DNA from: Takakia lepidozioides
Lineage: Eukaryota > Plantae > Bryophyta
Reading direction: 5' to 3'
DNA length: 64,000 nt
Assembly (NCBI GenBank): GCA_030704615.1
Contig: CM060732.1
Span: forward strand, 21,142,001 to 21,206,000
Numbering within the stretch: position 1 is the first letter of the stretch; the number at the start of each line of letters is the position of its first letter. Below are positions 17,907 to 45,696 of the stretch, in pieces. The notes under the pieces are model-generated. The model saw nothing but the letters and a program-made list of their open reading frames with translations. It made no database searches and had not been told where the DNA came from. Position numbers and translations under genes: made by a program.

Positions 17907-18304
17907 CACTACAACAGATCGCGGTAGTTATGACTGCCAAACCATGGTAGTCATGGTTTTCATGACTTTGACCATGACTGCACCATGTTTTTATATGAAA
18001 TTGACCTCCCGCAGTCGTTCATACGACTGTAGTCATATGAATGACTATCTAAATAGTCGTCTGTGTGACTACATGGCTTCGGAATGGGCGGAAGGCTGGT
18101 CAACAGCAATTGACCAGATTTAGCTCACCATTCATAGTCATTTCCATGACTACAGTGTACATGGATGAGGTTACATAGTCATGATGACTACTGGGGATTT
18201 TGTAATTTGGTGTGTATAATACATGTCGTGCACCTAAGCATCGTGCCACAACATACATCGCTGTCCACCACACAATCTAAGCACACAATCCTAGAAAGCT
18301 ATAC
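17907..18304 (+). mobile_element. CACTA-A left terminus (TIR and subterminal ATGACT repeats)
   Basis: TIR CACTACAACAGATCGCG preceded by ATT (17904-17906); dense ATGACT/AGTCAT repeats; matching terminus at 58577. Confidence 0.8.
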
Positions 18305-21300
18305 CAAAGGTCCTGAGTTCTCATCTGAATCAAAGACCTCTCCATGTCACTGTATCTATAGGGTCTCCGAAAGATTGGCGTGTCAGTAGTCAATTCAATG
18401 CGAATCTCTTGACCCTTCAGTGCTCCTAAGTCCTTCAAACTAAAGGCAAAGCAGTTCCTGTAAGCCCTCAAGAACCGCTGTATACGTCGTCTCTCTCCTC
18501 CGGTGACTATAGGTCCAACATCAGGCTCCCAGTTGTACTCCGTGACTGCAACCTTGAGTCCAGCAGGCTTAGAGGTAGAAGATGCGTCTCGTGGTTGCTA
18601 TGTTGCAACCTCTTAAGCAGTGACCACTGCCTCCTCTGTCAGTGACAATGTCTCATCCTGCCCTATCATCCCATCCTTGAGGACCTCCTCAATCCGAGAA
18701 AAATCCCCAACCTGATCCATCACCGCCGCCTTGGCTGCCAACTCCTTTTGAACCTCGAGCACCTCCCATGTGTGCCATGGATGCGGCCTGCACCTCGTGG
18801 TCCTCACCTGCTCGCCCCCACTCGCTGCCTGTACCGTCTCGGTAGGCAGGGAGACCATGAATGGAAGTGTACTCCGTACTCTGCGCTGCTCAACCATAGC
18901 CAAGCTGATAATCCAGGTCAAGCAATTGAGATCCATTGCTTGCCCCAACACCTGACGACGTGATGCCTCAGAAAGAGATGGCACCGCCGTGGTACCTGTG
19001 GTAAAACCCATCGCCCGCTCGCGCTCGTCAGCATTGGGCTCCACTAATTGTTGCAACTGGCTATCCCACAAGAAGTCAGGTCCACCATCCCGAAAGCATG
19101 GGATCCTGGGAAGCTGAGCAGTGTAGGTAATGCTGCTCGTGGTTGACCCACCCTGTTGACCACTGCCAAAGGCGAACGGTCATCGTGTCTCACACGTTGA
19201 GACTGCCTCCATGTGTTTAAAATGCTATCCACTGCGAGGTGTGCTCGCCGATGCACCCCATCAAATGCAAGCTTGAGCAGTGCGGGTGGCATCAAGTTAG
19301 TCCACCATAGCCGTGGACGATGAGGCCATGACCCCACTGCAGCTGCATCCAGCAACACTGCTGACCCAAGCTACAACCGGACTTGATACACACTGGTCAT
19401 CACCCTGGCCCGAGAATCACCCATCAGTGGCACATTCTCCAAGATGTATGCTGGAGATACAGCTTGATGAAGCTGCAAGTGGCGCAAAATCCGCACCATC
19501 TCCCAAAACAGACCCGTCCTCGAGTCTCGCAATCCATTGCCATGCCCGGCTGATGAATGCCCTTGGCAGGGCCAACTTGTCACTACCAGATCAATGGAGC
19601 CAACCCGCTCCAAATCATGCGCCCCCAGCAACGAAATGTCTGCTGGCAAGGCTTGTTGGTATCCACGAACTGCAGACACTGGCAACAAATCAGGGTACTG
19701 CTGTACCAACTGAGCAACATGGCGCAGTGAGACGTGTCGTGCAGTCTCATCCCTCTCCACATACAGGTAACGTCGAACTCGTACACCTGCCTGCAGTACT
19801 ATAGCCAATCCAGTGCTGATCCCGCCAAACAAGTCCAGAAGGCATATGCCTTCATCCGGGCACTGCCACACAAGAGGTGTGGTGTCCAATGGCGACAACT
19901 GAGGTGGTCTTGGTGCAATCACCGCATTCTCCTCTTCTCCTGACGGTACGAAGGCCTCTACCCAGGCTTGTTGTACCCGTCCATTAGCAGCCTGCTGCAA
20001 ATCCTTGCTCGTACCCCATAATGGAGTGTGAGCAACCATGGCAGGCAACTCCGCCGTACCATCCTGCTCTGCTGGAGGTGGCACATCCTCTGCATAGGCA
20101 TTGCCTTCCAACAACTCTCCAGGCCAACTAACTGCAGCTGTAATGGCGGCTAGTGTTGGCAGCTTGCCCCGCTGGGCAGCCGTAATATCCCCAATGAATG
20201 TCACAGGGAGCTGTGCACGACGACCATCCCCTGACTGCCTTCCAGGCCTGTAGGATGCTGACTCCTCCCAAAAGTCCAGGGTGAAGCCCATGGGATATAA
20301 CACTGCCCCACCAACAAGGACATCGTAAGAGACCGCGTCTATCACAATGGCCTTGGCTCGCATCACTGAACCATCTACAGGATGATCTGGTTGTAGTCCA
20401 ATGGCCAACTCACGCCGTGTCATGCCCCGAGCCTGCTTTGATCCTCCCAGAGATGTTTGTATCTGGAAAGGACAAGGCTCCATATCCGCCTCCATGAGGC
20501 CCAAACCTGCAATAGCAGCTCTGCCCAACATCAGTGGCTGAGCTCCTGAGTCCAACAAGACCCGCAGTGGCCGGTACTTCTTGCCTGCCGGTCCACTCAA
20601 AGTGAAAATGCCTCCCTGGTTGTCTAACAAGACAACTCCAGGTGTCACCATGGCGCGCTCAAAGGCTGGCCTAGCTGGCAGCTCCGTCAACCTGGCAGCT
20701 GCAGCTTGCCATGGCGCAGCCGTGGCAGTCTTGACCCTCAAATCCAATGATCCCTCTGCCACTACACCTTCCAGTAACTCCGCAGAAGATGAAGTGACCT
20801 CCTCACTCTCGCAGAGTGTTGTTGCTAGTCTGAACACTGCAGCTGGTCTTATCCCCGGCGTCGCAATCATGGTTGCCGAGAACAATGGGGCTTGACACAC
20901 AGAGGTGGCTGCCCCCAAAAACACACAGGCTGCACTAGCCTTGGTAGCAGGTGTCAGTGCTGCACGTGTAGCTCTCCCCAATGGCATAGTAACCTCCGCC
21001 TCGGTAACAGTCGGGCGAGAACTAGGTGCCATGGATGGCGTCGACACTATCTCCGCCAATGTAAATGACTGAGGAAGCCTCGCCTGACGGCTTGCCTCCC
21101 CACGCTGTGGATCCAATTCCACCTCTGCACCTCGTGGCTCAGGAACTCGTGCTGCTCCTCGAGTCACGGCTGCAGCAGACTCCACCTGCACTAGTGGTAG
21201 TGCTGCTCCGCACATGAATCCCATGCCTCCCATATCTCCTCCCTCAGGAGCAGGAGGTGGACCATCCCGCCTGGGAGCCGGTACCACATGAGCTGTAGCC

Positions 21301-21744
21301 ATGGCAGCGAGCCTCTGCTCTAGCTGCTGAAGCCGGTTGGCCATGTCTTGGTCAACACCCTGACCTCCGCGTCCTTGGCCATGTTGAGCTTGCCCTTGGC
21401 CTGCACCTCGTGCCCGACCACCTCGTCCTCTCTGGGGTGGTCCACCTCGCCCCCGGCCACCATTGTTCCCTTGGAACTGGCCTGGGCGCAACTCAGGGTG
21501 CAAGTCATAACACTGGGCATCTCCATGCCCATACTTGCCACAATGCCCACACTGCAACTGTGCAGGCTGTGCTTGTGTCGGCCTTCTACCACTCTCTAGG
21601 CAATCTCTCTTGACATGGGGTCCTCCACATGTCCAACATATCACCCCTGGTTGTTGTTGGCCTGCAAAAGATGCCACGGGCCTCTGCACCTGAGGTCCCC
21701 TGTAAGCTCCATGGAACTTGGGTTGGGCAACCTTGCCCCCCTGA
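18305..21744 (-). mobile_element. Ty3/Gypsy retrotransposon copy 1, internal part: Zn knuckles, aspartic protease, C5 DNA methyltransferase, RT N-terminus (truncated)
   Basis: CWTCGGPHVKRDC and CGHCGKYGHGDAQC; protease VLLDSGAQ; DNMT motifs; RT lead-in CFAFSLKDLG...IRIELTTDTPIFRRPYRYS. Confidence 0.9.
18900..19850 (-). pseudogene. DNMT3-like cytosine-5 DNA methyltransferase domain in retrotransposon copy 1
   Basis: Motif I LLDLFGGISTG, II YVERD, IV SWPCQG, VI ILENV, VIII HRPRLWWTNL, IX ERERAMGF, X VLGQAMD; one TGG>TAG stop (19371-19373) and one frameshift (~19090). Confidence 0.9.
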
Positions 21745-23099
21745 CACTACTACAGAAACCGGTTTTTCCAACACCACCCATAGTTCACACCTGGCACTTT
21801 GAACAGCTCCTCTTACACCCATGTGAGAGGAGGCAAGGTGTGATCTGGACCATTGTAGGAAAACCCACATGGTGTTACAAATTTCACACTCGAATGACAC
21901 CCATACGGTCAACGGGTGTTGACCAAGATAATGCATATGGGGCATTTGACATGAGTGTGAAATGAGTCATGGAGTGTGAGGTTAGTATGAGATGTCCTAC
22001 AAGAATTTGGGGCAACTATATGGCGTGGCACATTGACCATCTAGGTGGAAGATAGATGGATGAAATGACTTCCACCTCTATTCAACATGCCTTGGACGAC
22101 ATAACACATAGACTTTTGTTTAGAGAATTTAAAAGTTCAAAAATGTTATTAGGGTTATGGGGCCTGCATGTAGAGGGCTGTGGGACTTGTAGTTTTTCTT
22201 TGCCAGCTCGTTTAGAATCTGAATGCCCACTAGTGCAGGCCATCCATTTAAGTTGATGCCAAAATGCATTTTCATCCAAACATCAAAGCTCTCAAAATAG
22301 ACAACCTCAAGTAAAATGAGAAGGAGATCGACAGAACCGAAAGGGCATAGAATTCTCTTCAATATTGAACACTACCTGCAACTATTGGCTATAACTTGCC
22401 CTCTGTCCTGTCACATATAATCCCTTCGGGAACCAACAATCCAAAAAGATGCACTGCTCATGCAGCTGACGACAATATCGTTATGAGAATGTCACACTAT
22501 AATCAACAATGTACAACAATTGCTTTGAGAAGCTATAGATAAAACTACCACATGTCGTCTCAGAGATTTGTGAGCGCCAAAAATGTCAATCCCATTTCTG
22601 TCCAGTCAACCTTGACACGCAGTTCGGGACACACAACAGAGAGGGCGTAGGCGCATGTGCACAACAACCCTAGGCCCCTCACAATGAGACAGTCTGAAGC
22701 TGAGCTGAGCACGAATTTCAATATCTACTAGTCCAACCGTACTAGAGAAATATCCAATGATCCTCAGACAAGGCTTTCTTCACCACCTTACAAAAATTGT
22801 TCCCAATGACTACCTCCCTGTCCACATTGTTGCTTGATAGCTTGGACAAAGTGCCTTGCTCTTTGTGACTGGCTCCCTTTTTGAGACAGCAGGGTTTTTT
22901 TTTGACGGGTGTACTTCACTCACAACCGTCTTTTTTACACTGCGTCCGGGATATCAATGATCGCCCCAGCCTGAATTTTGCCCCACCCTATCAAGCGCCA
23001 GTGTTTTTTAACTAGTGCTTTTCAACTCGTCTGCTGAGGGCCCCACTTTCTCCCCTCTTCTGGTACATGTCAAAATCACTCCAAGAGCCATAGTGTTGG

Positions 23100-25495
23100 A
23101 AAACTGCCTTCGCATCCTTGATGCTCCCACATTTGGCATACATGTCCACGAGGGCACTGTCCAGAATCACAATCAGGTACAATTCCAGCTTTGACAATGA
23201 AACCATGGACCTAATCTTCCCTTTTCCAGAGCTGGCAAGCTTGCCCTTGATGCTCCCACATTTGGCGTACATGTCCACGAGGGCATTGTTCAGAATCACA
23301 TCAGGTACAATTCCAGCTTTGACAATGAAACCATGGACCTCTTCCCTTTTCCAGAGCTGCCAGGCTTGCCCTTCATGCTGACACATTTGGCATATATGTC
23401 CACGAGGGCATTGTCCAGAATCACATCAGGTATAATTCCAGCTTTGACAATGAAACCATGGACCTCTTCCCTTTTCCAGAGCTGCCAGGCTTGCCCTTGA
23501 TGCTCCCACATTTGGCATACATGTCCACGAGGGCATTGTCCATAATCACAATCACGTACAATGCAAGCTTTGACAATGAAACCATGGACCTGATCGGAAC
23601 CTTTTCCAGAGCTGGCAGGCTTGCCATTGATGCTCCCACGTTTGGCATACATGTCCACGAGGGCATTGTCCAGAATCACAATCAGGTACAATGCAAGCTT
23701 TGACAATGAAACCATAGACCTGATCTTCCATTTTCCAGAGCTGGCAGGTTTGCCCTTGATGCTCCCACATTTGGCGTACATGTCCACGAGGGCATTGTTC
23801 AAAATCACATCAGGTACAATTCCAGCTTTGACAATGAAACCATGGACCTCTTCCCTTTTCCAGAGCTGCCAGGCTTGCCTTTCATGCTGACACATTTGGC
23901 ATACATGTCCACGAGGGCATTGTCCAGAATCACATCAGGTATAATTCCAGCTTTGACAATGAAACCATGGACCTCTTCCCTTTTCCAGAGCTGCCAGGCT
24001 TGCCCTTGATGCTCCCACATTTGGCATACATGTCCACGAGGGCATTGTCCATAATCACAATCACGTACAATGCAAGCTTTGACAATGAAACCATGGACCT
24101 GATCGGAACCTTTTCCAGAGCTGGCAGGCTTGCCATTGATGCTCCCACGTTTGGCATACATGTCCACGAGGGCATTGTCCAGAATCACAATCAGGTACAA
24201 TGCAAGCTTTGACAATGAAACCATAGACCTGATCTTCCATTTTCCAGAGCTGGCAGGTTTGCCCTTGATGCTCCCACATTTGGCGTACATGTCCACGAGG
24301 GCATTGTTCAAAATCACATCAGGTACAATTCCAGCTTTGACAATGAAACCATGGACCTCTTCCCTTTTCCAGAGCTGCCAGGCTTGCCTTTCATGCTGAC
24401 ACATTTGGCATACATGTCCACGAGGGCATTGTCCAGAATCACATCAGGTATAATTCCAGCTTTGACAATGAAACCATGGACCTCTTCCTTTTTCCAGAGC
24501 TGGCAGGCTTGCCCTTGATGCTCCCACATTTGGCATACATGTCCACAAGGGCATTGTCCAGAATCACAATTAGGTACAATTCCAGCTTTGACAATAAAAC
24601 CATGGACCTGAGCAGAACCTTTTCCAGAGCTGGCAGGCTTGCCATTGATGCTCCCACGTTTGGCATACATGTCCACGAGGGCATTGTCCATAATCACAAT
24701 CACGTACAATGCAAGCTTTGACAATGAAACCATGCTAACACATTTGGCATACATGTCCACGAGGGCATTGTCCAGAATCACATCAGGTACAATTCCAGCT
24801 TTGACAATGAAACCATGGACCCGATCTTCCCTTTTCCAGAGCTGCCAGGCTTGCCCTTCATGCTGAAACATTTGGCATACATGTCCACGAGGGCATTGTC
24901 TCGAATCACATCAGGTATAATTCCAGCTTTGACAATGAAACCATGGACCTCTTCCCTTTTCCAGAGCTGCCAGGCTTGCCCTTGATGCTCCCACATTTGG
25001 CATACTTGTCCACGAGGGCATTGTCCACAATCACAATCAGGTACAATTCCAGCTTTGACAATGAAACCATGGACCTGATCTTCCCTTTTCCAGAGCTGGC
25101 AGGCTTGCCCTTGATGCTCCCACATTTGGCATACATATCCACGAGGGCATTGTTCAAAATCACATCAGGTACAATTCCAGCTTAGACAATGAAACCATGG
25201 ACCTGATCTTCCCTTTTCCAGAGCTGCCAGGCTTGCCCTTCATGCTAACACATTTGGCATACATGTCCACGAGGGCATTGTCCATAATCACAATCAGGTA
25301 CAATGCAAGCTTTGACAATGAAACCATGGACCCGATCTTCCCTTTTCCAGAGCTGGCAGGCTTGCCCTTGCTGCTCCCACATTTGGCATACATGTCCTCG
25401 AGGGCATTGTTCAGAATCACGTCAAATACAATTCCAGCTTTGACAATGAAACCATGGACCTCTTCCCTTTTCCAGAGCTGCCAGGCTTGCACACG
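23100..25495 (-). repeat. PPR-derived tandem array: ~19 monomers of 125-130 bp with a 509-bp four-monomer higher-order repeat
   Basis: CACATTTGGCATACATGTCCACGAGGGCA recurs at about 129/125/125/130-bp spacing; near-identical ORFs at 23296, 23805 and 24314 (offset 509). Confidence 0.9.
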
Positions 25496-26295
25496 CACTG
25501 CAAACGCACACAAATGTGTTGTGGTCAGGCTTCATCCCTTCCCCCATCATTTGGTCATGATAGGTCTCCAAAGGCTCCATCCCACTTCACTGTTGTGCAC
25601 ATCCTGCAAGCATCGTGCTCCACGACACCACATCTTGTTCAGCCATAGTGTTGAACACTCCCTCCACATCCTCAATGCTCTCACATATATTTGGCATACA
25701 TGTCCACGAGGGCATTGTTCAGAATCGCATCTATTACAATTCCAGCTTTGGTGATGCAACCATGCACCACTTTGCCCTTTTGCAGGGCTGCCAGATTTGC
25801 ACATGCACTGCAAACGCACAATCTTGTTCAGCCATAGTGTTGAACACTCCTTTCGCATCCTCAATGCTCCCACATTTGACATACATGTGTCCACCAGAGC
25901 AGTCATGTTCAGGATGACATCTGGTACAATTGCAAATTGTCACGATGGATCTCTTTGCCCTTTTCCAAGGCTGCCAGGCTCCCACACTCACTGCCAACAC
26001 ACACAAATGTTATGTGGTCGGGCTTCACCCTTCCCCCATCATCTGCTCATAGGTCTCCAAAGCCTCCATCCCATGCCCCTGCAAGCATCGCACTCCACGA
26101 CACCACATCTCGTTTAGCCATAGTGTTGAACACTCCCTTGGCATCCTCGATGCACCCACATTTGGCATATATTTCCACCAGGGCAGTGTTCAAAATGACA
26201 TCTGGTAATCTGCCAGGCATTCATCTTTTTGCCTCGGTTGTCCCACCATTGACTGGATCAGAAAAGTATTCATTCCACACCTTCTCCTCATCTCT
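25496..26295 (-). pseudogene. Degenerate PLS PPR fragments preceded by a PDF-like motif
   Basis: EEKVWNEYFSDP / SQWWDNRGKK (frameshifted) adjoins VILNTALVEIYAKCGCIEDAKGVFNTMAKRDVVSW. Confidence 0.75.
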
Positions 26296-26299
26296 TGTA

Positions 26300-26558
26300 C
26301 CTATTTTTGGATACCCCATTGCGAGATACAACTCTCTGGTTTTAGCCCGGTCAAATTGCTCACTTGCAGTGACCACCATAGGAGCTGCTCTATGTTCCAC
26401 ATGTCCATTAAAGTGGGACGAGTTATTCCTATAGGGATGAATAACAGGCAAGTATCTCCTATGACCAAGATACAAAACTTTTTTGCATGCCTTGGAGTAC
26501 CTGGAATCAACATTAGGGCCGCAAGCTGGGCAGGCCTTGTATCCCCCGTGTGCGCATC
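26300..26558 (-). pseudogene. CACTA transposase (Tnp2/TnpD, Transposase_21-like), downstream piece
   Basis: CAHGGYKACPACGP...LYLGHRRYLPVIHPYR...FNG continues in frame from ...DFPAYGLLAG at 39441 once CACTA-C and one TSD are removed. Confidence 0.85.
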
Positions 26559-28376
26559 CACTACAACAAATTGCGGCTTTTACGTCTCTGTGTTATGACT
26601 GCAAATGCAGTCATGGAAGCCATTTACGACTTCCTGACTCTGCAGACGTAAAGACCTAGTCAGTTGTGACATGGCATACGGACAGTGTAGTCCATGTCAG
26701 CGGCTGTGCAAGAGTGGCACGTGCTCGATGCAGGAAATGACACGTGGCAGAGTGTTTAGCTCTCCATGACTGCGAACTATGACTACGGGTGTGCTAATCC
26801 GGTTGCAACACGTGGCGCGTTGCAGTTTTTACATGTGGTCCATCAGCAGATTGACATGTGTCATGATGGGTGTTTTTTTGGGGTGTATTGCTATTTTTTT
26901 ACATATTTGTGTATTTCTGCCACGTGGTGTAGTACTATTGGAGAGTGAAAATAGATGTAGTCATTATTATGACTATGATAGCAGTCATGTACATGTCTAT
27001 TACAACAATGAAATATAATATATAATACAAAGAGAACAAGGCAGCAAGACATAACTGCAACAAGCTGAGCAAAACCAAGAGATTGCATACCATCTCTATT
27101 TACCAATCTATTTTGTTGCGATCTAAAAATACATTAAATAGTCGCATGTTCTCATGTGAATTATTTTGTCTAACTATAACACTTTGAAAAGTGTTCACCC
27201 AAAATCTTCTAACTACTCATGTATTCCATCAATCTGCAACCCATCAAAAACGGCTTGCATGGCTTTAAGAATTACTACAGCAAGGACATTTGTTTGTTTT
27301 CCAAGTTCTTGCATAAGATGCACCAACCAATATTGCATTGTGAGACACTCACTCGCTATACTCCAAAGCGTCCAGGGAAGGTCACTGAGCAACCTGCCAA
27401 GGCGGAAACAATTAAGAGAATTATCTAATACCATATATGAAAAACCAATGCCAGTGTTGTTTATGGTAACTTCTATCCCATGTCCTAAACAAACCAAAGC
27501 AAAAAGGTTGGTGTGTATTGGCGAAGTCGTCAGATACTTCACAAAGAAACATGCACTAAAAATGAAACCCAGGATGATAGGAAGGTCACTCACGTTTATA
27601 CAAAGACATCTTGCCCATTGCCCAGCACCCTGCGTCACCCACACTCTATCTCTATTCCTTCAGCTATCCATGCCTCTGCACAAATCAAGCATTCATCCTT
27701 GCCTTGCTGCTAGCAGCTGACAATGACAGCCTACATTTGTTCTAGGAAACACCCAACTCAGCGTAGCACACTAGTTCCTATGCTGAATTGCGTCTGCTAC
27801 TCTCTGAAATGTAGCAGGCATTCACCTTTCTGCCCCGGTTGACCCATCAGTGACTGGGCTCAGATAAGTATTCATTCCACAGCTTCTCCTCATCTCTGTT
27901 ACCTATTTTTTGACATTTTCCTGTTGTCACATTGGCAGTATCATGTCAAAGTCACTCCAAACTAGATTCACTCAACCAGCTAACTTGCAGAATTGAACAT
28001 GTAAATTTAGGGCCGATTCTGATAAGAGGGAAAAACAAGGTGAAATGTGTTGAAGAAGATGCCTTCATTAGCAGTGCCTGATTTTATCACTTGTGCGCTG
28101 CTCCCAGTTGACCATCTACCCATGCAGGTTTCTTGTAGCTATTGATCCACAAGGAATCACAGGTAATCTTGTGCTTGAAATCTGGCCTTCTTGGATGAAT
28201 CTGGACCCACACGAAATCCCTGCTCCTTCAGCTATCCATGCCTCTGCACAAATCATGCATACATCCTCGCCTTGCTGCTAGCAGCTGACAATGACAGCCT
28301 AGAATTGTCAAAGCAAACACTAGCAGGGAAAACAGGGTGAAATATGTTGAAGAAGGTACCTTCATCCTTTTCTCCA

Positions 28377-28871
28377 TCATTTGCTTTCAGGTGTCCAAAG
28401 CCCCATCCCGCGCTCCTGCTCTGCACACCCTTCAAGCATCGCATTCCACGACACCACATCTAGTTCAGCCATAGTGTTGAACACTCCCTTGGCATCCTCA
28501 ATGCTCCCACATTTAGCATACATGGCCACCAGAGCCATGTTCAGGATGACATCTGGTACAATTGCAGATTTGATGATGTCACCAGGGATCTCTTTGCCCT
28601 TTTCCAGGGCTGCAGACGCACTGCAAACGCACACAAACGTTATGTCGGCGGCCTTCACCCCTTCCCCCATCATTTTCTCAAAGGTTGGAGCCTCCATCCC
28701 GCACCCCAGCTGTGCATACCCAGCAAGCATCGCACTCCACGACACCACATCTCGTTCAGCCACAGTGTTGAACACTCCCTTTGCATCCTCAATGCACCCA
28801 CAATTGGCGTACATGTCCACCAGGCAGGGGCAGTGTTCAAAAGGACATGTGGTAATTTGACAGGCATTCAC
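28377..28871 (-). pseudogene. PLS PPR gene fragment inside CACTA-C
   Basis: LVDMYANCGCIEDAKGVFNTVAERDVVSWSAMLAGYAQLG...MYAKCGSIEDAKGVF; no complete gene. Confidence 0.8.
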
Positions 28872-29649
28872 CTCCTGACTTGGCTATTCCCAACCCATCC
28901 TGCCATTGGCAAGCGATTCCACAGAAACTGATAGTTGTCTGTTTGACTATATAACTATGTATCTCTTGCTTTCTTACAGCTTGTACTGTGACACGCGTAA
29001 TGCTCTTGTTGTGTTGAATCATTTCACGCCTTCAGGTTTCAAAACAAACATTACCGTCTTTCTTTATCAGACATGTGCACCAAGACAGAATCTCACCAAA
29101 AGATTGTTGGTGTTCAACAGTACCATACATGAAGATAACTAGCACCAAAAAGGCATATGAAGCTTATTCTGTTCTCCACTGGTATTAACTTGCACCAGGA
29201 CTTTCAATGGCTGTCTTCCAGTCCACCCACGGCCCGCTGTAAATGGCTTGCAACCTACAGATTTTCAAGAGAGCTGATTACCATGAAAATTTCAAAACTG
29301 GCTTTACAAACCTAATAATTCAAGCATAATCAGCATTCAAGCTAAGGAAGCTTTACAAGCATCGTGTTGCGAGTAAAGCCTTGGCAATGTCACCAGGAAA
29401 TCCCTGGCTGAATGGATGACACTGAAATAATGGAGCTTGAAATCCGGCCCTCTTGGACGAATTTGGGCCCACACTCTATCCTAATCCTTCAGCTATCTAT
29501 GCCTCTGCACAAAATCCTTCAGCTATCTATGCATACATCCTTGCCTTCCTGCTAGCAGCTGACAATGACAGCCTAGAATTGTTCCAGCAAACACCCCCAA
29601 CCCTACTTATCAACGAGCAATGAGCTAACTTACAAAATTCAATATGCAT

Positions 29650-30349
29650 CTCAGGGCGTCTGATGAGAGGGCAAAACATGTTGAAATAGGTCGAAGAAGA
29701 AGGTGCCCTCACCACACTGTCCTTGACCTTGTGTCATGACCCATGGAGGATTTGACCTTGTGTGTGATGCTTGTGTCTGTAGTCAGGTAATGTCGGATTG
29801 GTCAATGAGAACCTGCACCACGGTGCAGCTGAGCAGGCAGACTTTGAAACACGGTCTGCTAAGACCAAGCTGACTCTCCCAAGAACCTTGTAAACATCAG
29901 GAAGAATATCAAATCATGGTACTAACAGGAGCCAACAACCCACATTTGCAGGATGGACAAAATTCTGCACATCGTACATTAAAAAAAAACCACACCTTGC
30001 GATTGCGGTCGCACCCTCGTGAAGGATCTTAAAAAAACTCATGCCAGCTCTGCTCCATGATTCAAATTCAGGGCCGAGTCTGATGAGAGGGCAAAATAGG
30101 CTGAAATAGGTCGAAGAAGAAGGTGCCCTCACCACATTGTCCTCGACCTTGTGTCATGACCCATGGAGGATTTGACTGAACATGAACCCAAGATGACCTC
30201 TAGTGTGTGCTGCTTGTGTCTGTAGTTAGGTAATGTCGGATTGGTCAGTGAGAACCACCACGGTGCAGCTGAGTGGGCAAAGATTGAAACACGGCCTACT
30301 AAGACCAAGCTAACTCTCCCAAGAACCTTGTAAACATCAGGAAGAATAC
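29650..30349. repeat. ~420-bp tandem duplication; the second unit is interrupted by the MULE and resumes at 38292
   Basis: TCTGATGAGAGGGCAAAA...GTCGAAGAAGAAGGTGCCCTC at ~29660 and ~30080; the first unit shows the empty site CAGGAAGAATATCAAATCATGG. Confidence 0.8.
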
Positions 30350-30534
30350 GGGGGCTGCTATTTCATGAGCGGCATGAGCATGAGCGGCATGAGCATGAGC
30401 AGAAAAAAAAAAAACATGAGCAGACCATTGTAAGTCCACGGAAATAGGGTTAGGAGGCACGGAAATAGGGTCATGTGAAGTTGGAATGTGGCACCAGTGG
30501 ACTTGAAATGCAACATTTTATTGCATTTACTTGC

Positions 30535-32030
30535 CGAAAATGGCTAAGTCCCAGATCTGACTAGGCCCGGAACTGGAAAAATGGCGCCGAATTTCCGATT
30601 TTGGTGCCAGTCAGATCTGGGACTTAGCCATTTTAGGCCCCGAACTAGAACAATGGCGTTTTTTTTGTTTTTTTTGTTTTTTTTTCGGTGCCATTTTACC
30701 AGTTCGGGGCCTAAAATGGCTAAGTCCCAGATCTGACTGGGCCCGGAACTGGCAAAATGGCGCCGAATTTCCGATTTTGGTGCCAGCCACTCTAGGGACT
30801 TAGCCATTTTCGGCCCTGAAAGTACCCACTGGCTATGCCTCTGCTTTCAAAAAACATGTGGTCAAACAAAAGTTGAGCCAATTGAACTCGCTCTAGTACT
30901 TGAGATGGAGAGTGGGTGAGGTCTGTATGGTGGAGTCTTTTAGCAAAGGTGCCATTGGCTTGACTTATATAACGTGATAGAATGGTTTCTCCTCTTTTCA
31001 CCATTTCCGTATCACTAGAAGAAGACCTGCTTACATCTATAAGTGCAAGGTGTTAGCATAGTTAACACTTGTGTGTGGAAAAGAGCTTGATAGATAGCTC
31101 TTAAGTTACAAGCTGTTGCAGGGTTTGCAAGAAGAAAATCTTGTGGTGTTTATGTACAAGAGGAGGTCTTCAAGAAGAGCATCATTGAAAGTTTGAGAGC
31201 TTGTGAAGAAGCTCTTGTTCTGCAAGTGTTGCAGGGTTTGAGGAGTTCAAGAAGAGCTCGGGTGTTAAGGAAGCAAGTGGTGCATGTGTGTAGAGTATGG
31301 TTTCAGCTTGTGGGAGTCTTCAACTTCCATTTTTCCTGTTCGGGGCCGAAAATGGCTAAGTCCCAGATCTGACTGGGCCCAGAACTGGAAAAATGGCGCC
31401 GAATTTCCGATTTTGGGTGCCAGTCAGATCTGGGACTTAGCCGTTTTCGGCCCAGAACTAGAAAAATATCGGTTTTTTTTTTTTTTTTTTTTTTTTTTTT
31501 CGGCGCGATTTATCCAGTTCGGGGCCGAAAATGGCTAAGTCCCAGATCTGACTGGGCCCAGAAATGGAAAAATGGTGCCGAATTTCCGATTTTGGGTGCC
31601 AGTCAGATCTGGGACTTAGCCGTTTTCGGCCCCGAACAGGAAAAATGGCGTTTATTTATTTATTTTTAATTTCTTTTTATTTTATTTTCGGCGCCATTTT
31701 TCCATTTCGGGGCCGAAAATGGCTAAGTCCCAGATCTGACTGGCACCAAAATCGGAAATTCGGCGCCATTTTTCCAGTCATGCAGGTAATTCGAAGAGCG
31801 GATGGATGGAAATCCGGCGCCGGATTACCATCCGCCAACTAGGTCGGCGCGCAAAATTTCCGTCATGCAGGTAATTCGAAGAGCGGATGGATGAAAATCC
31901 GGCGCCGGATTTCCATCCATCCGCTCTTGGAATTACCTGCATGACTGGAAAAATGGCGCCGAATTTCCGATTTTGGGTGCCAGTCAGATCTGGGACTTAG
32001 CCGTTTTCGGCCCCTAACAAGAAAAATGGC

Positions 32031-32062
<32 letters not shown>

Positions 32063-32402
32063 CGGCGACATTTTTCCATTTCGTTGCCGAAAATGTCTAA
32101 GTCCCAGATCTGACTGGCACCAAAATCGGAAATTCGGCGCCATTTTTCCAGTCATGCAGGTAATTCCAAGAGCGGATGGATGGAAATCCGGAGCCGGATT
32201 TCCATCCACCAGGTAAGTCGGCGCGCAAAATTTCCGTCATGCAGGTAATTCGAAGAGCGGATGGATGAAAATCCGGCGCCGGATTTCCATCCATCCGCTC
32301 TTGGAATTACCTGCATGACTGGAAAAATGGCGCCGAATTTCCGATTTTGGGTGCCAGTCAGATCTGGCACTTAGCCGTTTTCGGCCCCGACATGGAAAAA
32401 TG

Positions 32403-32434
<32 letters not shown>

Positions 32435-35400
32435 GGCGCCATTTTTCCATTTCGGGGCCGAAAATGGCTAAGTCCCAGATCTGACTTGCACCAAAATCGG
32501 AAATTCGGCGCCATTTTTCCAGCCATGCAGGTAATTCGAAGAGCGGATGGATGGAAATCCGGCCCGGATTACCATCCGCCAACTAGGTCGGCGCGGAAAA
32601 ATTTCCGTCGTGCAGGTAATTCGAAGAGCGGATGGATGAAAATCCGGCGCCGGATTTCCATCCATCCGCTCTTGGAATTACCTGCATGACTGGAAAAATG
32701 GCGCCGAATTTCCGATTTTGGGTGCCAGTCAGATCTGGGACTTAGCCGTTTTCGGCCCCGACATGGAAAAATGGCGTTTTTTTTTTTTTTTTTTTTTTTT
32801 TTTGGGGCGCCATTTTTCCATTTCGGGGCCGAAAATGGCTAAGTCCCAGATCTGACTTGCACCAAAATCGGAAATTCGGCGCCATTTTTCCAGTCATGCA
32901 GGTAATTCCAAGAGCGGATGGATGGAAATCCGGCGCCGGATTTCCATCCACCAGGTAAGTCGGCGCGCAAAATTTCCGTCGTGCAGGTAATTCGAAGAGC
33001 GGATGGATGAAAATCCGGCGCCGGATTTCCATCCATCCGCTCTTGGAATTACCTGCATGTCTGGAAAAATGGCGCCGAATTTCCGATTTTGGGTGCCAGT
33101 CAGATCTGGGACTTAGCCGTTTTCGGCCCCGACATGGAAAAATGGCGTTTTTTTTTTTTTTTTTTTTTTTTGGGGCGCCATTTTTCCATTTCGGGGCCGA
33201 AAATGGCTAAGTCCCAGATCTGACTTGCACCAAAATCGGAAATTCGGCGCCATTTTTCCAGTCATGCAGGTAATTCCAAGAGCGGATGGATGGAAATCCG
33301 GCGCCGAATTTCCATCCGCCAGCTAGGTCGGCGCGCAAAATTTCCGTCATGCAGGTAATTCGAAGAGCGGATGGATGGAAATTCGGCACCGGATTTCCAT
33401 CCGCAAGGTTGGTCGGAGAGCGGATGGATGGAGATCCGGCACCGGATTTCCATCCTGCAGGTAAGTGGAATCCCGGATGGATGGAAATCCGGCGCCGAAT
33501 TTCCATCCTGCAGGTAATTCGAATCCCGGATGGATGGAAATTCGGCGCCGGATTTCCATCCTGCAGGTAAGTGGAATCCCGGATGGATGGAAATCCGGCG
33601 CCGGATTTCCATCCTGCAGGTAATTCGAAACCCGGATGGATGGAAATCCGGCGCCGAATTTCCATCCTGCAGGTAATTCGAATCCCGGATGGATGGAAAT
33701 TCGGCGCCGAGTTTCCATCCTGCAGGTAATTCGAATCCCGGATGGATGGAAATTCGGCGCCGAATTTCCGTCCTGCAGGTAATTCGAATCCCGGATGGAT
33801 GGAAATTCGGCGCCGCATTTCCATCCAGCAGGTTACTGGAATCCCGGATGGATCGAAATCCGGCGCCGAATTTCCATCCTGCAGGTATTTCATAGCTGAG
33901 AATTACCTTCCTGCAGGTAATTCTGATCAATGAATTACCTTCCTGTAGGTAATTCTCTGCAATGAATTACCTTCCTGCAGGTAATTCTGAGCGAGGAATT
34001 ACCTTCCTACCTTCGTTGATAAGAATTACCTGCAGGAAGGTAATTCATCGCTGAGAATTACCTGCAGGAAGGTAATTCATCGATCAGAATTACCTGCAGG
34101 AAGGTAATTCTCAGCGATGAATACCTGCCTAATGGAAATTCGGCGCCGAATATCCATACGCCAGCGATCCGACTTACCAGCTGGATGGAAATTCGGTGCC
34201 GGATTTCTATCCATCCGGATTCAACTTACCTGCTGGATGGAAATTCGGCGCCGAATTTCCATCCATCCGGGATTCGAATTACCTGCAGGATGGATATGCG
34301 GCGCCGGATTTCGATCGATCCGGGATTTCACTTACCTGCTGGATGGAAATTCGGCGCCGGATTTCCATCCATCCGGGATTCGAATTACCTGCAGGATGGA
34401 TATGCGGCGCCGGATTTCGATCGATCCGGGATTTCACTTACCTGCTGGATGGAAATTCGGCGCCGGATTTCCATCCATCCGGGATTGCACTTACCTGCTG
34501 GTGGAAATTCGGCGCCGAATTTCCATCCGGGGGCTGGTCTCTGTCGGAGAGGTGCCGGCCTCTCCGCCGCTCTGTTGGATATTCGGTGCCGAATTTCCGT
34601 CCGGCGGTTGAAATATGACGGCCAGGTGCCGACCTCTCCCCCTCCCCAACCGCATTGGAATGGCCCCGGATTGAAATTCGGCGCCGTTTTCCCATCTGGG
34701 GAGGTTTTTATGTCGGCCAGTTTTCAGTCTGACACCCCGACAAGACTTCCTTGGGGGGCCCGGATGGAAATTCGGCGCCGAATCTCCATCCAAGGGATGC
34801 TCTCTGTCGAACACGTGCCGACCTCTACGCCCGAGGCGACTTCATCCGGGTGTCCCCTGTTCGATATTCGGTGCCGAATTTCCGTCCGGGGGTTGAAATG
34901 TGACGGCCAAGTGCCGGCCTCTCCCCCCTCCCCAACCGCATTGGAATGGCCCCGGATTGAAATTCGGCGCCGTTTTCCCATCTGGGGAGGTTTTTATGTC
35001 GGCCAGTTTTCAGTCTGACACCCCGACAAGACTTCCTTGGGGGGGCCCGGATGGAAATTCGGCGCCGAATCTCCATCCAAGGGATGCTCTCTGTCGAACA
35101 CGTGCCGACCTCTACGCCCGAGGCGACTTCATCCGGGCGTCCCCTGTTCGATATTCGGTGCCGAATTTCCGTCCGGGGGTTGAAATGTGACGGCCAAGTG
35201 CCGGCCTCTCCCCCCTCCCCGACTGCATCCGAACCGCCCCGGATGGAAATTCGGCGCCGTTTTTCCATCTGGGGATGTTTTTATGCCGGCCAGTTTCCGG
35301 CCTGACCCCCCGACACGACTTCCTTTACCTGCTGGATGGAAATTCGGCGCCGAATCTCCATCCAGGAGATGTTCTCTGTCGCACACGCGCCGGCCTCTGC

Positions 35401-35470
35401 GCCCGAGGCGACTTCATCCGGGCTTCCCCTGTTGGATATTGGGTGCCGAATTTCCATTCGGGGGTAGTAA
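30535..35470. repeat. Arrays of palindromic GGCGCC-centred motifs: ~370-bp poly-T units, ~57-bp units in inverted arms centred ~34010, three ~286-bp units
   Basis: Consensus GGATGGAAATTCGGCGCCGAATTTCCATCC is a 30-bp palindrome; variants recur dozens of times with CCTGCAGG and CAGATCTG palindromes; interrupted by unique sequence ~30820-31325. Confidence 0.9.
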
Positions 35471-35733
35471 TGTGACGGCACGGTGCCGGCTTCTCCCCTT
35501 CAGCCGTCATCATCCGGACGGCCCCCCACTTTCTGACTGCATATTGCGCAAAGACCAGGGGCCGCATTCCGGAGACAAGGTTCATTAACACTCTGACTGT
35601 GGATTTTTGAGATAGTTGGCTCCCTGGATTTGGATCAGGCTTCGTCGCTCGGACAAATCGGCATCACATTCATTCCCATCGCTGCATCCCCCTTCTACCA
35701 GGGAGCTTCCCCGCACTCCATCCTGGGAGTCTT

Positions 35734-37908
35734 GTGTGCACATCTCCCATGGCGGAAAACCCGAGCGCTACAGTGTACTGCCCTCCTCACGAGCATAGAG
35801 CTTCATTTCCGTGCAGAGGGGACACCTGCCGGGTGATGGAGAAATATCTGTGCGTTCGATACCACCTGAAACCGGGGTCGGTTTTTTTGGAGGAGGAAAG
35901 GAAGGACTCTAACGGCCTTGTTGTCGACAGTATTGTTGTGCTCCACGATGATTTCGGCGATGGCAGAGAATGGCGAGTTCCACCATTGGAAAGCGTCATA
36001 TACAGGGCTGTTGGGGACTTTATTTGCCCGCCAAATGCACCTTCTATCCTGGCGCCTTCCACGAAACAATCCGCGAATCAGAGAGTGGCTACCTCAAAGA
36101 GAGAAGTCCGCAACGAAGTAAATCCAGAGCCGAACCCATCCATGAAGACGAGCCAGAACCGGGTTGTTCACAACCTGTCCGACTCAGACGAGGTCATGGA
36201 AGTTCCGAGGTCGTCCTGGAGATCAGGCAAGTCCTCAATGGACGTCAGTGGAGGAGGGAGTCATATTCCCAGCACGAGCACCGCAGTTCGATCTATTCTT
36301 GAAATTCTGCGAGGGCTTCACCTGGAGGGACACCGGTCGGAGCTGGCCGGGCTGGACTACAGCAAGTTCGCAATTAAATCGGTTACATGCCTTCCCGCCG
36401 ACGTCGACGGTAATATCTTCTTTGAGTTCCCTCCTCGGGCGGACTACTCGAGGGCGTCCGGAATGTTGACAGATATGGATAGAAAACATGACGGTCATCC
36501 TTGGTGCGTTACCAAAACCACCAGCATGAAGATGCTCGATGGTGTGCGGGTGCGCTACGTTGTTTGTGCGGGCGCGTTGCGGTGTTTCTCCCCAACTTGC
36601 TTCCACTTTAAATCCAGAGGTCACAGGAACGAGACCGATTGGACAGGCACAGCTCATCAACCATTTCGAGCTCAGGAGAAGGTTCCGAACTCCACATTTA
36701 AGTGTGCGCATTGCAAAGAACCACCACACTGCATGTCTGTTTGTAATGCCAAGCAGTTCTATGTGTTGCACCGTTTCCCTGACCTCACACCAGCTTGCAT
36801 ACACGTTGGTTCCCATTGTCACAAATTGGCGAGGGGGAACTCGCGGGAGGCTGCCCACGAAGCAGAGCAGCTCGTTCAGGAGGAGGTTAAGTTGAGATCG
36901 GGTGCCAAACCCAAACAGATACAGCTCCAAGCCGCCCATAAGATGGCATTGGCCAGAATTATGTCGGAAGACGGCTCCGATAGAGTTCCTCTCGACGAGA
37001 AGGAAATGGAGGCATTGCTGGAGTCGGTGTCCCACGTATGTTCACCGAATGTCCGAAACCACATTGTCTCATGCAAACAGAAAATTGGGCGTGGCTCGGA
37101 TATGCACTCCATTCTGGAGGTGAAGCGACGATGTGGATATGACTACATTCATGGAAGTAGGTTTCCAGGACAATGGACTGAGGCAGATCGTTGTTTCGTA
37201 TTCAAAATGTCCACGTGTGGACCTGGCAGCGGCGTCGAACTGGTTGACAGGATGACGAGTAGGAACTTGTCAAACAGTTTGGTCATGTTCGACCATATCA
37301 AGTGAATTACAAATCACCAGTGGGTGACAATGGGTGCACATGTCTACGACACCCACTGCAGGATGCTAATGACAATTGCTATTTGTGAGATGAAAGGAGA
37401 GGACACACAATCGGAGATGCTTCTTTGGCAGGGAATAAACGAACAGATGGCCAAGGCGGGATTGCCCCCTCCGAATTTCCGTGGTTTCATGGCAGACAAC
37501 GCACAAGCAAATTGGGCTGCCATCCGAAGGGTGTACGGGCAAGACCCCAATGTTCCCATGGAAGGCAAGGAGAGATCTTGTGGGTTCCATTTTCTGCAAA
37601 GCCTTTCGCAGTACACAACCAGGCTCGTGGCGCCAGATTTCAGAGAGGAGCACCGTTCCATGTGCCTTGCGTGGAAGCGCGCTCCTACCTTGGATGATGC
37701 AGAGACACAGTTTGCATGCATACGGGCTTGGTGGACATCGTCAGGTGTTGTAAGGAAATCAGACGAGGGAGCAATGGTCAGTTGGCTAGCATGGTGGCAT
37801 TATCGTTTCCTCCAGTTCGGCGACTATATGCGGGAGGTGAGTTGCACGTCTGAAAATGCTAAGTCCGAACTGGCTAAGTCCGAACATGCACTGGAAAAAT
37901 GGCGCTGA
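35734..37908 (+). pseudogene. MULE transposase with N-terminal Cys/His (WRKY/GCM1-like) DNA-binding region; one in-frame stop
   Basis: ORFs 35734-37305 and 37324-37908 share a frame, separated by TGA (probably CGA>TGA). Motifs VMFDH, FRGFMADNAQANW and CxxH (RSCGFH) fit MULE DDE transposases. The C-terminus may be spliced or deleted. Confidence 0.75.
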
Positions 37909-38780
37909 ATTACCTGTCATGAGGGGACCTATAGCCGCGGAATTCGTTCCCATTTTTCGCCAGAGAGACCTATTACCGCGAAATACGTCGCCGTTTTTCA
38001 GGTTACGGACCCTATTACCGCGAAATTCGGCGCCATATTTGCACATGTCGCTGGGAATTGGCATGAGCGGAAGACGAAATATCATGAGCACAACTGTCAA
38101 AAGTGCAATTTTCCCTTCAAGGGGCCGATTAATATATTTGTTTTTCCTGACACATTGCATTAAATTATTGTTTTTTATTGTTTTTTATTTTCGAAATTTG
38201 TACTTCTGCTCATGAAAACCGATTGTGTTACTACTCTGCTCATGCCGCTCATGCCGCTCATGCCGCTCATGCTCATGAAATAGCAAACCTCGAAGAATAC
38301 CAAATCATGGTACTAACAGGAGAGCCAACCCACATTTGCAGGATGGACAAACTTCTTCACATCGTACATTAAGAAAAAGCCACACCTTGCGATTGCGGTT
38401 GTCCCACCATCGTGAAGGATCTTTTAGAAACTCATGCCAGCTCTGCTCCGTGCTGTAAAATCAGGGCCGAGCGGGTAGAGATCGAAACACGGCCTGCTAA
38501 GACGAAGCTGACTCTCCCAAGAACGGCGGGCTCCCAGCCGAAACCTCCTCGCATACATACCCTAGCGTTTCTAGGGTTGCTTGCTCCAGATGCGAAGGTT
38601 GATCCAACTGCGGGCCTCCCATGCATGTTTGCCCTCTCTCCCGCTCGCTCGCTCTAAGTCCCAACCCTCTCTCTCTCTCCTTCCCGCTCGCTCTAAGTCT
38701 GTTCACGCTACTGTGATGGGCAACTTTTTAAGTTTTTTAACCTTTTTGTAAACCCTAAGAGCCCATTTTTGATTTTTTTT

Positions 38781-38981
38781 CTTTTTTTTTTTTTTTCTTA
38801 AAGGAAACCACAAGCCCTTGAGGAGGGGGAAAATTCACCCGCCTTCATTTATGGGCCATAAGACCTACAGGACGATCAACGTCAAGACATACCGTCTCGA
38901 ACAATCCCACACACGGGATAAGGGCAGCGGGTTTGAACCCCAAACCACAAGGGCGACACACTGTGCACTTACCAGCCGATG
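38781..38981 (-). mobile_element. Probable tRNA-derived SINE
   Basis: B-box-like GGTTCAAACC and an A-rich tail on the minus strand; possible TSD TGATTTTTTTT (38770-38780, 38982-38992). Confidence 0.5.
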
Positions 38982-39440
38982 TGATTTTTTTTAAATCTTT
39001 GTTTTTTTTGGGTTTTTTTAATTCATTCTAGTGGTAAGAGTCTCCGTTTTTTTAAGATATAAATACTCATATATTATATATATAACCAGAAAAGCATGTG
39101 TCGACACGTGTAGTCATGTAGTGATTCATCCATGTGATGATCTGGCATAATGCATTAGAGTGAGAGTCATGAAGTCATATGTCTGTCTTGCAATATGCAC
39201 ACGTCATTCTAGTGTAGCCATGACCGTGACTGGTAGTCATATCTGCCATGCCAATATTCGTGGTCAAACATGTTTGACCTGTGTTGCGCAGAGTCCGAAG
39301 CCATGCAGTTGCATATACGCCTTCTCCAGACCTGCATTATGACTTCAAAAGCATTTTACGACTGCAAATGGCATTTCTGCCACAAATCTGTCATGACTGC
39401 GCACCCATGGGAGTCATAAAAGCCGCAATCTGTTGTAGTG

Positions 39441-41025
39441 ATCCTGCTAGCAACCCATAAGCTGGAAAGTCGTGGATTGACCACATCAAGATGGCCCTCA
39501 TGCGAAATGACTGTTGCCCCACTAGGCTACTTCCATCCAATGCCTCCACACCAACTTCCCACAACAATTTCAGCTCATCCACAAAGGGCTGCAGATAAAC
39601 ATCTGCATTGTCATTTCCCACAGATTGTGGTCCAGGAATCAATAAAGCCAACATCGTGAAAAATGGTTTAGTACACAGCCAGGGTGGAAGATTATAGTTT
39701 ACCAACATGACAGGCCAAGTTGACCATTTGTTTGATTTATCACTGTAAGGATTGACACCATCCCATGCGAGACCCAATCGCAGATTTCTGGGGTCCGCTG
39801 CAAACTCAGGCCATTTTTGGTCAATGTGGGCCTAAGCCTTGCTGTCTGCTGGGTGCCTAACCAAGCCATCTAGACTTCGATTCTTAAAGTGTCATGACAT
39901 TAACTCTGAGATGGATTTGGCTTTATACATTCGAAGCAGCCTTGGAATGATAGGGAAATGTCGAAGGACCTTACGAGGTACTGGTGTCTTCGTACCCACC
40001 ACATAACGACGTGCCTGACATTTTGGACAAACCTCCAAATTCTGAAGCTCCCTTCTGAACAACACACAACCTTTCGGACATGCATGTATACTCTCGTAAT
40101 GAAGCCCGAGTTCCATTATGAGTTGTTTTGCCTCATAGTGGGACTTTGGCAGGCAATTGTCTGCTGGCAACAGTTGTCTTCCTAACAATGTAAGGAGTTC
40201 ATCGACAAAGGTGTTTGACACACCATGGGTTTGACAAGCATTTAACAGCAGTAAGGTAGCAGACAATCGAGAGGAAGAACTCCCTACATATAAAGCCCTG
40301 GATGCCTCGTGCTCAAAACGTAAGGCACTCGCTGCACCACGATCACCATCACTCTTCAGTCCACCATCAGTCTGCTCTGGCACTCCATCTGTGTCCCATT
40401 GGCCCTGTGTTCCATCTCCCGGTTCCTCATGTGCATCACCAGTTTGCACCCCATTATCTATAGTTGCGAATGTCTCCCGGAGCATTCTAAGCATGTCAAG
40501 ATTACGATCCAAGGTATCAGGACCACCTGCAGGGCTGGTTTCCGTTCTAAACCCCTCATGTTCGTCTCCAGAGTTTTCCTGCTTAGTACATATCAGACGC
40601 CACATGTCAATCCACTATAAGATGGGGAGTTTTTTCATTTGAAATAGTGGATGTGGAACGTGCCATTATACAGGCACGTGGCAATAGGAAAACGGGCATG
40701 TACAATACTCTACACCTTACAACAATACCGCTACCAGGAATTTGAACTGTTTCTTATAATTTCAAAGTATGCATCTGCAAAGGGAAGACAATCCAGAGAT
40801 ATGCACCGGGAGTTCTCGTAAATTAGGATCTCGCAAGTTCAAAAGTAGATGACGCTTAGCCCGGCCAATGGTTTGCCAGTTTCCACCATGACAGGCATTG
40901 CATGGAGATAGAATTTTCCGAAGACCCAGTCTTCTTGCTCGCGCTTCCTCTAGTTTCCACAATCTGTCATCGTCATGTTCTGCTTGTGTCCGCCTTTGCA
41001 ATCGATGGGCAGTAGGAGGGATCAT
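39441..41025 (-). pseudogene. CACTA transposase (Tnp2/TnpD), upstream part, with transposase-associated N-terminal region
   Basis: SPCNAC (40762-41025); LPKSHYEAK...IHACPKGCVLFR...CPKC...LRHFPIIPRL (39892-40605); DPRNLRLGLAWDGVNPY...WPVMLVNYNLPP...DVYLQP...SIHDFPAYG; TGG>TGA/TAG stops at ~39892 and ~39832. Confidence 0.9.
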
Positions 41026-41054
41026 CTTGGCGAGTAAGTGAGACTCGTCAGGAA

Positions 41055-43826: not shown

Positions 43827-43869
<43 letters not shown>

Positions 43870-45590: not shown

Positions 45591-45696
45591 ACTGACAGGG
45601 TCTTCTTGCATAGGCCTTTGGGCTTCGCTTACCCACTAGGTTTGCCATCCCTAGTAGTATGGTGGTATTGTTTCTCATGTTTATGTTGAGCAATGT

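Follow-up and report, generated by a model that had tools for sequence, protein, structure and literature searches.

A Gypsy-type element carrying a methyltransferase

The window analyzed here is a stretch of 64,000 nucleotides from Takakia lepidozioides (assembly GCA_030704615.1, contig CM060732.1, positions 21,142,001-21,206,000), and all coordinates below are relative to it. It contains two copies of a Ty3/Gypsy-type retrotransposon in which an unpermuted C5-cytosine methyltransferase lies between the protease and the reverse transcriptase (RT). Both copies are dead. Gag, protease and methyltransferase together form the first open reading frame (ORF1), whether RT is made by readthrough of a stop or from a start of its own.

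Six-frame translation of copy 1 reveals a stop-free minus-strand frame of 791 codons from stop to stop (21746-19374) that carries two zinc knuckles, a protease with the motif LLDSGAQ and methyltransferase motifs I, IV and VI. An earlier reading made from the letters alone (the sequence-only reading) had correctly placed these features in a single frame, but had given its length as 772 residues. The ORF has no start of its own, being the 3' portion of an ORF severed by a CACTA DNA transposon, whose TGA target duplication lies at 21742-21744 and 50511-50513; on the far side of the insertion, the 5' half of gag is in frame with the main ORF and collinear with a complete relative. The knuckles gave no zf-CCHC match in Pfam at E 0.1. 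Downstream come motifs VIII, IX and X and then the RT N-terminus, in the order given by the sequence-only reading, but behind three interruptions: a premature TAG (19373-19371) preceding motif VIII, a 1-nt frameshift near 19092 preceding motifs IX and X, where the lost base is present in other copies, and a family-wide stop before RT. Beyond 18304, copy 1 lacks approximately 3.1 kb (RT core, RNase H and integrase). In the X9 contig, which derives from another organism, 3.1 kb separates the matches at 18304 and 18281-18306, indicating that the segment from RT core to integrase was deleted from copy 1.

Copy 2 is 89% identical to copy 1 across 3.3 kb with 20 indels and shows the same order, followed by an RNase H tail and an integrase matched by the Pfam families rve and H2C2. 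The sequence-only reading had described this order, which stands, but a deletion near 62850 has removed approximately 1.3 kb from the RT core and RNase H, and the coding sequence carries 15 one-base frameshifts, some of which may be assembly errors. A rearranged piece holding the leader and the 5' half of gag likely belongs to this copy (Table 1). The order gag, protease, RT, RNase H, DDE integrase is thus seen in copy 2, and relatives including L019, L051 and P0141 have it in full. In place of the tyrosine recombinase of DIRS elements, copy 2 has the rve/H2C2 integrase and relatives are flanked by 4-bp duplications. No paired long terminal repeats (LTRs) were found in the window.

Table 1. 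Window coordinates of the element copies and of the transposon interrupting copy 1
Feature	Position	Strand	Basis or remark
Probable 5' end and leader, copy 1	51548..52738	-	includes ~92-bp tandem array 52350-52737
Candidate start of copy 1, TGCTCAGAC	52738	-	second best TG-starting site of 10,527
gag 5' half, copy 1	50514..51547	-	weak Retrotrans_gag match; one TAG near break
CACTA DNA transposon, 28.8 kb, inside copy 1 gag	21745..50510		terminal inverted repeats 25/30 nt
Two zinc knuckles, CX2CX3HX4C and CX2CX4HX4C	21510..21638	-	sequence
Aspartic protease, LLDSGAQ, Asp at 20552	20240..20650	-	weak Pfam matches, E 0.01-0.02
DNMT3-like C5 methyltransferase, copy 1	18881..19880	-	PF00145, motifs
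Methyltransferase motif sites, copy 1	I ~19835; PC 19571-19566; ENV 19439; HRPR 19322; IX ~19026; X ~18948
In-frame stop TAG-CAA-CCA at methyltransferase/RT boundary, copy 1	18592..18600	-	TAG at 18600-18598; predicted readthrough site
RT N-terminus, copy 1	18304..18597	-	sequence
3' end (B segment), copy 1, terminating GCACGACA	18224..18303	-	nhmmer E 0.0022; relatives' 3'-end profile
Likely part of copy 2: rearranged leader and gag 5' half	53297..54814	53604-54814 -, 53297-53603 +
Copy 2	59462..64000	+	gag 3' half, protease, methyltransferase ~61400-62435, RT N-terminus, RNase H tail, integrase off window edge
In-frame stop TAG-CAA-CCA, copy 2	62699-62701 (TAG)	+	alignment

The domain resembles DNMT3 and is under purifying selection

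In the Pfam search that the sequence-only reading had proposed, both copies matched PF00145 above its curated cut-off (E 3.9e-11 for copy 1 and 8.6e-14 for copy 2; 17 frames scanned). A sequence search of PDB returned DNMT3A as the best match (E 2.7e-8), with 29 of 30 matches being DNMT3A, DNMT3B or DNMT3C and the last one another protein. A family-profile search of PDB likewise ranked DNMT3A (2e-22) above DRM (5e-14) and HhaI (5e-10), and DNMT3A/B/C also above DNMT2; this placement is a similarity ranking and not a rooted tree. A Foldseek search with a predicted model placed DNMT3 structures first (E 2e-6), while the fold predicted from the single sequence of a full natural domain was uninformative (predicted local distance difference test, pLDDT, 34). 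The numbers I to X are labels that we take to apply to the copies; the residues themselves align with those of DNMT3A. By sequence, profile and fold, the domain is predicted to be an unpermuted DNMT3-type C5-cytosine methyltransferase, as first proposed. The motif order rejects an identity as DRM. Host DNMT3 and DRM2 share the fold and catalytic motifs, DNMT3A being the best solved relative, but the window domain is without PWWP, ADD and UBA and is not permuted like DRM.

All 67 aligned rows (29-80% identity; one protein entered twice) retain the catalytic Cys, and the EN and HRxR residues are at least 90% conserved in the same rows. Conservation of ENV across the 80 metagenome loci described below was not counted because the scan pattern itself demanded ENV. 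Between copies 1 and 2, dN/dS is 0.36 in the methyltransferase (95% bootstrap interval 0.21-0.60) and 0.16 in the protease. Comparison of the window with metagenome relatives gave pS 0.71 and pN 0.23 for the methyltransferase and pN 0.32 for the protease. The methyltransferase is under purifying selection, and the neutral evolution named beforehand as a possible refutation is not what the copies show.

A conserved stop closes ORF1 after the methyltransferase

An in-frame stop of the form TAG-CAA-CC[A/C] separates methyltransferase and RT in both window copies (TAG-CAA-CCA). Among the 49 of the 80 loci in which methyltransferase and RT lie at the expected spacing, 48 have a stop at the aligned site (33 TAG, 15 TAA), with RT in frame beyond it if there are no indels. 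The natural proteins P0285 and P0290 terminate at this stop, and in K. nitens two of the three proteins stop 6 residues past the methyltransferase domain. That the stop is a decay mutation was rejected because it is common to lineages with saturated synonymous sites. Since this family-wide stop precedes RT, the methyltransferase lies on the Gag-protease product and not simply in Pol.

The context of the stop suggests how Pol might be made. UAG-CAR-YYA is the tobamovirus readthrough signal, for which 32% readthrough is given in a plant reporter (PMC2754532, PMC4132726), and TAG-CAA-CCA of the window copies matches it; judged by this likeness, the stop is likely a readthrough site.

Relatives and phylogenetic placement

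The same order of domains is kept in dozens of relatives, which rejects the chance insertion of a host gene and upholds the earlier view of a family architecture. The protease lies directly upstream of the methyltransferase in 59 of 80 metagenome loci, with a contig edge in 14 more, and RT directly downstream in 49, with a contig edge in 13; these loci were found via the methyltransferase itself and are related copies, some of them duplicates, which tempers what they say for the account proposed below. In run X1, depth over the methyltransferase equals depth over the protease and joints skipping the methyltransferase have single-contig depth, in agreement with the expectation that most family members keep the domain. 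Summed contig depth in this run is 0.3-1.15 million along 18262-21649 against approximately 50-110 for single contigs; the sum is not a copy number, but it hints at some 10^4 copies in the host.

A protein-library search gave 2,706 matches at E 0.001, of which the best 150 were examined together with 4 cluster members. Among these 154 proteins, the methyltransferase stands after the protease or before RT in 17, after RT/RNase H in 61, before the integrase in 14 with a cut 5' side and alone in 61; one was unassigned. In an unrooted methyltransferase tree of 151 rows (rows below 130 residues dropped), a branch with support 96 parts the window and all 17 proteins of the first type from all 61 of the second, a split that the RT tree repeats barring one long-branch pair. 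Named members on the window's side come from Klebsormidium, Closterium, Marchantia and Calypogeia, and Scenedesmus is opposite. The Klebsormidium and Closterium proteins have the window's order of domains; in K. nitens GAQ93235.1, the methyltransferase follows the protease. A second, large clade on that opposite side comprises Gypsy polyproteins ordered RT, RNase H, DNMT3-like domain, integrase, PHD (P0131, P0132, P0137 and others), and no description of it was found in the papers searched. The Scenedesmus sp. PABB004 protein KAF8056149.1 is of this type; its methyltransferase is related (35-43% identity) but occupies another position in the polyprotein, and the type forms separate clades for methyltransferase (98/96) and RT (97, 21 of 22 rows).

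Among the 120 of 189 profile matches listed, the 14 with species names are all from liverworts, Sphagnum, Closterium or Klebsormidium, and none is from a vascular plant, a result that concerns annotated proteins and says nothing of genomes. In a 49-row tree the window domain falls in a 19-row clade (100/99) with every liverwort and Sphagnum row. Its members from Marchantia polymorpha, M. paleacea, Riccia sorocarpa, Calypogeia fissa, Sphagnum troendelagicum and S. tenellum are fragments filed as hypothetical or unnamed proteins, in which knuckle, protease or RT sequence adjoins the domain. The phylogeny called for by the sequence-only reading thus gives a firm liverwort and Sphagnum clade, while this tree leaves the links of Klebsormidium and Closterium to it unsettled; identity to Klebsormidium is approximately 30% (32-36% to the query for P0324 and P0334), and the trees do not decide on a sister relation. 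On this sequence evidence we assign the element to the known Gypsy-DNMT3 kind, within which it forms a bryophyte branch. Bacterial contamination was rejected, the copies being nested within plant pentatricopeptide repeat (PPR) and CACTA sequence and the domain lying in a bryophyte clade. No relative was found among the viral contigs searched, and an atlas search gave only generic PF00145 clusters.

Base composition differs between the window and its relatives, the observed/expected ratio of CHG being approximately 1.0-1.2 in the window copies versus 0.44-0.62 in metagenome relatives (L019-L073), which suggests different CHG methylation histories of the respective hosts.

Termini and integration form

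Loci of the relatives begin TGTCATGACC (segment A, 339 nt) and finish CA[C/T]GACA (segment B, 115 nt), and so have TG...CA ends. Among the 21 with more than 500 nt of 3' flank, some of them duplicates or internally deleted, 17 have the form A...B and 4 the form A...B-A-B (L019, L051/L057, L056 and L062), and the conventional paired-LTR form B-A...B-A was found in none. An exact 4-bp target duplication flanks 5 of the 7 A...B loci with both ends (one has a single mismatch and one has none) as well as both distinct A...B-A-B sites having both ends. A polypurine tract stands ahead of B in 8 of 8 loci shown, and the B/A junction reads CA-nn-T[G/A] in 5 of 5, A/B junctions being variable. In 10 of 18 loci, the 11 nt past A can pair at 10 or more positions with a site within A, which mostly lies approximately 30 nt after a TATA-like box; self-priming is known from Tf1/Sushi and Tcn1, and the site after A is similar (PMC6317226).

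The 3' end of copy 1 was singled out by an nhmmer profile of the relatives' 3' ends and ranked third among 10,523 sites when the last 60 nt of a relative were scanned pairwise, and two X9 contig matches also break off at 18224. Its candidate 5' end was scored against a relative's first 32 nt and lies at about the expected distance from gag, although an nhmmer profile of the relatives' 5' end did not recover it. TACA stands on the outer flanks at both ends (at the candidate start and at 18220-18223) and is a probable target duplication. Copy 1 appears to be of the A...B form without a terminal repeat. The element thus departs from the conventional paired-LTR type, and of the land-plant LTR lineage proposed by the sequence-only reading, the land-plant host and the Gypsy type hold, whereas paired LTRs were found neither in the window nor in these 21 loci.

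The prevalence of A...B could reflect cutting by the integrase at an internal junction, for which the palindromic LTR-LTR junction cleaved by foamy-virus integrase offers a precedent (PMC1180852). Alternatively, A...B copies might derive after integration from A...B-A-B by recombination between the B repeats. Such recombination would preserve the target duplication, just as solo-LTR formation does. We regard this origin as unlikely, for it requires frequent exchange over a repeat of only 115 nt (17 A...B versus 4), and it still leaves integration at the B/A junction, because a B end precedes none of 21 5' ends.

Proposed mechanism and alternatives

Our preferred reading, which we consider modestly probable, is that a Gag-fused methyltransferase packaged in bulk methylates the element's own new cDNA before integration. 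ORF1 would fuse Gag, protease and the DNMT3-type domain and close at the conserved stop, with RT, RNase H and integrase made only through occasional readthrough. The protease would release the methyltransferase, which would be loaded in bulk into particles and act there on cDNA ahead of integration. The functional LTR would be B+A, with the polypurine tract before B and the self-priming-type site after A, and the integrase would open the internal CA-nn-TG B/A junction instead of the LTR ends. This internal cut would yield mostly A...B copies without terminal repeat, probably dead ends, and two-LTR circles would give A...B-A-B copies able to replicate again.

A series of observations weighs against this reading, beginning with the activity of the enzyme. 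The predicted model has a mean pLDDT of 57 and is poor past motif VI, among metagenome loci the methyltransferase has a dN/dS of 0.61, against 0.43 in RT and 0.35 in RNase H, and of 58 full-length methyltransferase spans only 4 are open, the loci being mostly decayed copies. The Klebsormidium domain, moreover, gave no DNA methylation in yeast, which its authors called inconclusive (PMC5890265). This inactivity and a constraint weaker than that on RT would suit a domain whose role is non-catalytic or RNA-directed (nucleic-acid binding, a structural spacer or RNA methylation) or a decaying passenger, but the invariant catalytic Cys, the conserved residues of motifs VI and VIII and a closer likeness to DNMT3 than to DNMT2 make either improbable.

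A second difficulty is that the element-specific CpG depletion expected as a footprint of self-methylation is absent from the window copies and 8 relatives. Observed/expected CpG is 0.49-0.51 in the copies, 0.53 in the window and 0.46 in a long interspersed nuclear element (LINE); in the 8 relatives it is 0.49-0.59, the flanks being clearly below this in 5 of them and much the same in 3. This absence favors an active methyltransferase working on chromatin, be it at the integration site, in sister copies or in host DNA, with the PHD finger at the integrase C-terminus as a possible guide. A PHD-type Cys/His stretch does lie past the integrase in L051, PF00628 is common in the RNaseH-methyltransferase clade, and effects on host methylomes are discussed in PMC5890265. 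We nevertheless doubt that chromatin is the substrate, since fusion to Gag before the stop fits particle loading and the methyltransferase domain contains no targeting module of its own.

The stop presents a third. Most loci read CAA-CCC, one base from CARYYA, most metagenome loci have an in-frame ATG two codons past the stop, and P0141 and Closterium P0169 continue into RT with no stop. RT, RNase H and integrase could accordingly come from their own start by reinitiation, an internal promoter or splicing, the methyltransferase still being on the Gag product, and the comparable gag-pol stop of Tca2 has been studied (PMC2194720). An own start seems improbable to us in that the ATG is missing from both window copies and L001, and TAG-CAA-CC is retained between lineages with saturated synonymous sites. 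Finally, a self-priming complement of at least 10 of 11 nt occurs in only 10 of 18 loci, and it was looked for in copy 1 and not found.

The preferred reading of cDNA methylation in particles can be extended, much more tentatively, to an ancient lineage running from streptophytes to bryophytes. Such a lineage would make Gag-fused DNMT3 at capsid stoichiometry via readthrough, pre-methylate its cDNA, integrate by cutting an internal LTR palindrome and fill genomes with LTR-less copies missed by LTR finders, perhaps 10^4 copies in the host possibly supplying much de novo methylation capacity.

Surrounding features of the window

The CACTA transposon interrupting copy 1 holds a second CACTA element (26559-39440) with matching ends, an ATC duplication and 53-bp and ~371-bp tandem arrays, in which ORFs at 35611-37908 have no Pfam match. 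It has also captured a tandem array of 125-130-bp units of PPR-gene fragments (23020-25540), and inside it lie a LINE endonuclease-RT fragment (42443-43981) and an ORF (47485-48798) with a NIF/FCP1-like phosphatase domain (E 7.5e-16). Pieces of a PPR gene at 17287-17906 and 57480-58576 are seemingly split by CACTA, with an ATT duplication; the ends at 17907 and 58577 both face right, which points to a later inversion, and this inversion may explain the rearranged gag of copy 2. A C/A-rich 10/42-bp tandem array (54900-55890) lies upstream of the second gag piece.

Elsewhere, an intronless pyruvate decarboxylase (3881-5599) is 75-79% identical to the 120 matches listed; the best of these all lie at 78-79%, which sets the host apart from the liverwort and Sphagnum species named above. 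In a tree of 29 rows containing no fern, liverwort or hornwort, this protein joins two Sphagnum sequences and is separated from those of vascular plants (100/99), so that the gene by itself makes a bryophyte host likely. Uninterrupted ORFs at 1055-2089 and 10016-11596 presumably encode a RING-CH-type and a PLS-type PPR protein, respectively, and a tRNA-Arg(CCT) was called at 2535-2607 on the minus strand.

Comparison with known elements and implications

As the sequence-only reading had noted, the kind is known from charophytes: KnitGypsy-Dnmt3 of Klebsormidium is described with DIRS-like repeats, a Ka/Ks below 0.2 and a domain inactive in yeast (de Mendoza et al. 2018, PMC5890265). The window family resembles it in that Gypsy domains are combined with a DNMT3-type domain that is intronless, unpermuted and under purifying selection, and in the A...B-A-B layout of 4 related loci, although copy 1 seems to be A...B and copy 2 leaves the window. 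It differs in its land-plant host, its very high copy number and a commonest integrated form without terminal repeat, and its domain ends ORF1 before a stop, whereas the text of that paper puts the domain in Pol. SymbioDIRS-Dnmt3, a further retrotransposon-borne C5 methyltransferase, shares the A...B-A-B layout and gave CG de novo methylation in yeast (PMC5890265), but DIRS elements use a tyrosine recombinase and the window element a DDE integrase. EpiLTRs also carry a C5 methyltransferase, but one that is DNMT4-related and paired with an adenine methyltransferase (bioRxiv 10.64898/2026.05.21.726589).

Later papers cite the Gypsy-DNMT3 kind as streptophyte (PMC12344493; bioRxiv 10.64898/2026.05.21.726589). 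We found no description of it in land plants, subscription journals and Repbase lying outside the search, which agrees with the earlier impression that it is uncharacterized in embryophytes; the available parts of PMC11982613, PMC9033089, PMC8557442 and PMC6317226 contain none, and no description of Gypsy elements with split repeats was found either. What is new here is the conserved stop that places the enzyme on the Gag-protease product and the mostly A...B integration, the kind itself being known from Klebsormidium.

What a retrotransposon gains from encoding a silencing enzyme of its own has been asked since 2018, but in hosts that are difficult to handle experimentally; with relatives present in Marchantia polymorpha, it can now be tested in a genetic model. 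Given the conserved stop, the enzyme is expected in the amount and at the place of the abundant Gag product and no longer in those of the scarce Pol. The termini point to a DDE integrase using an internal junction, which would account for the DIRS-like repeats of the Klebsormidium element and, if true, would imply that tools requiring paired LTRs overlook an abundant class of retrotransposons in bryophytes.

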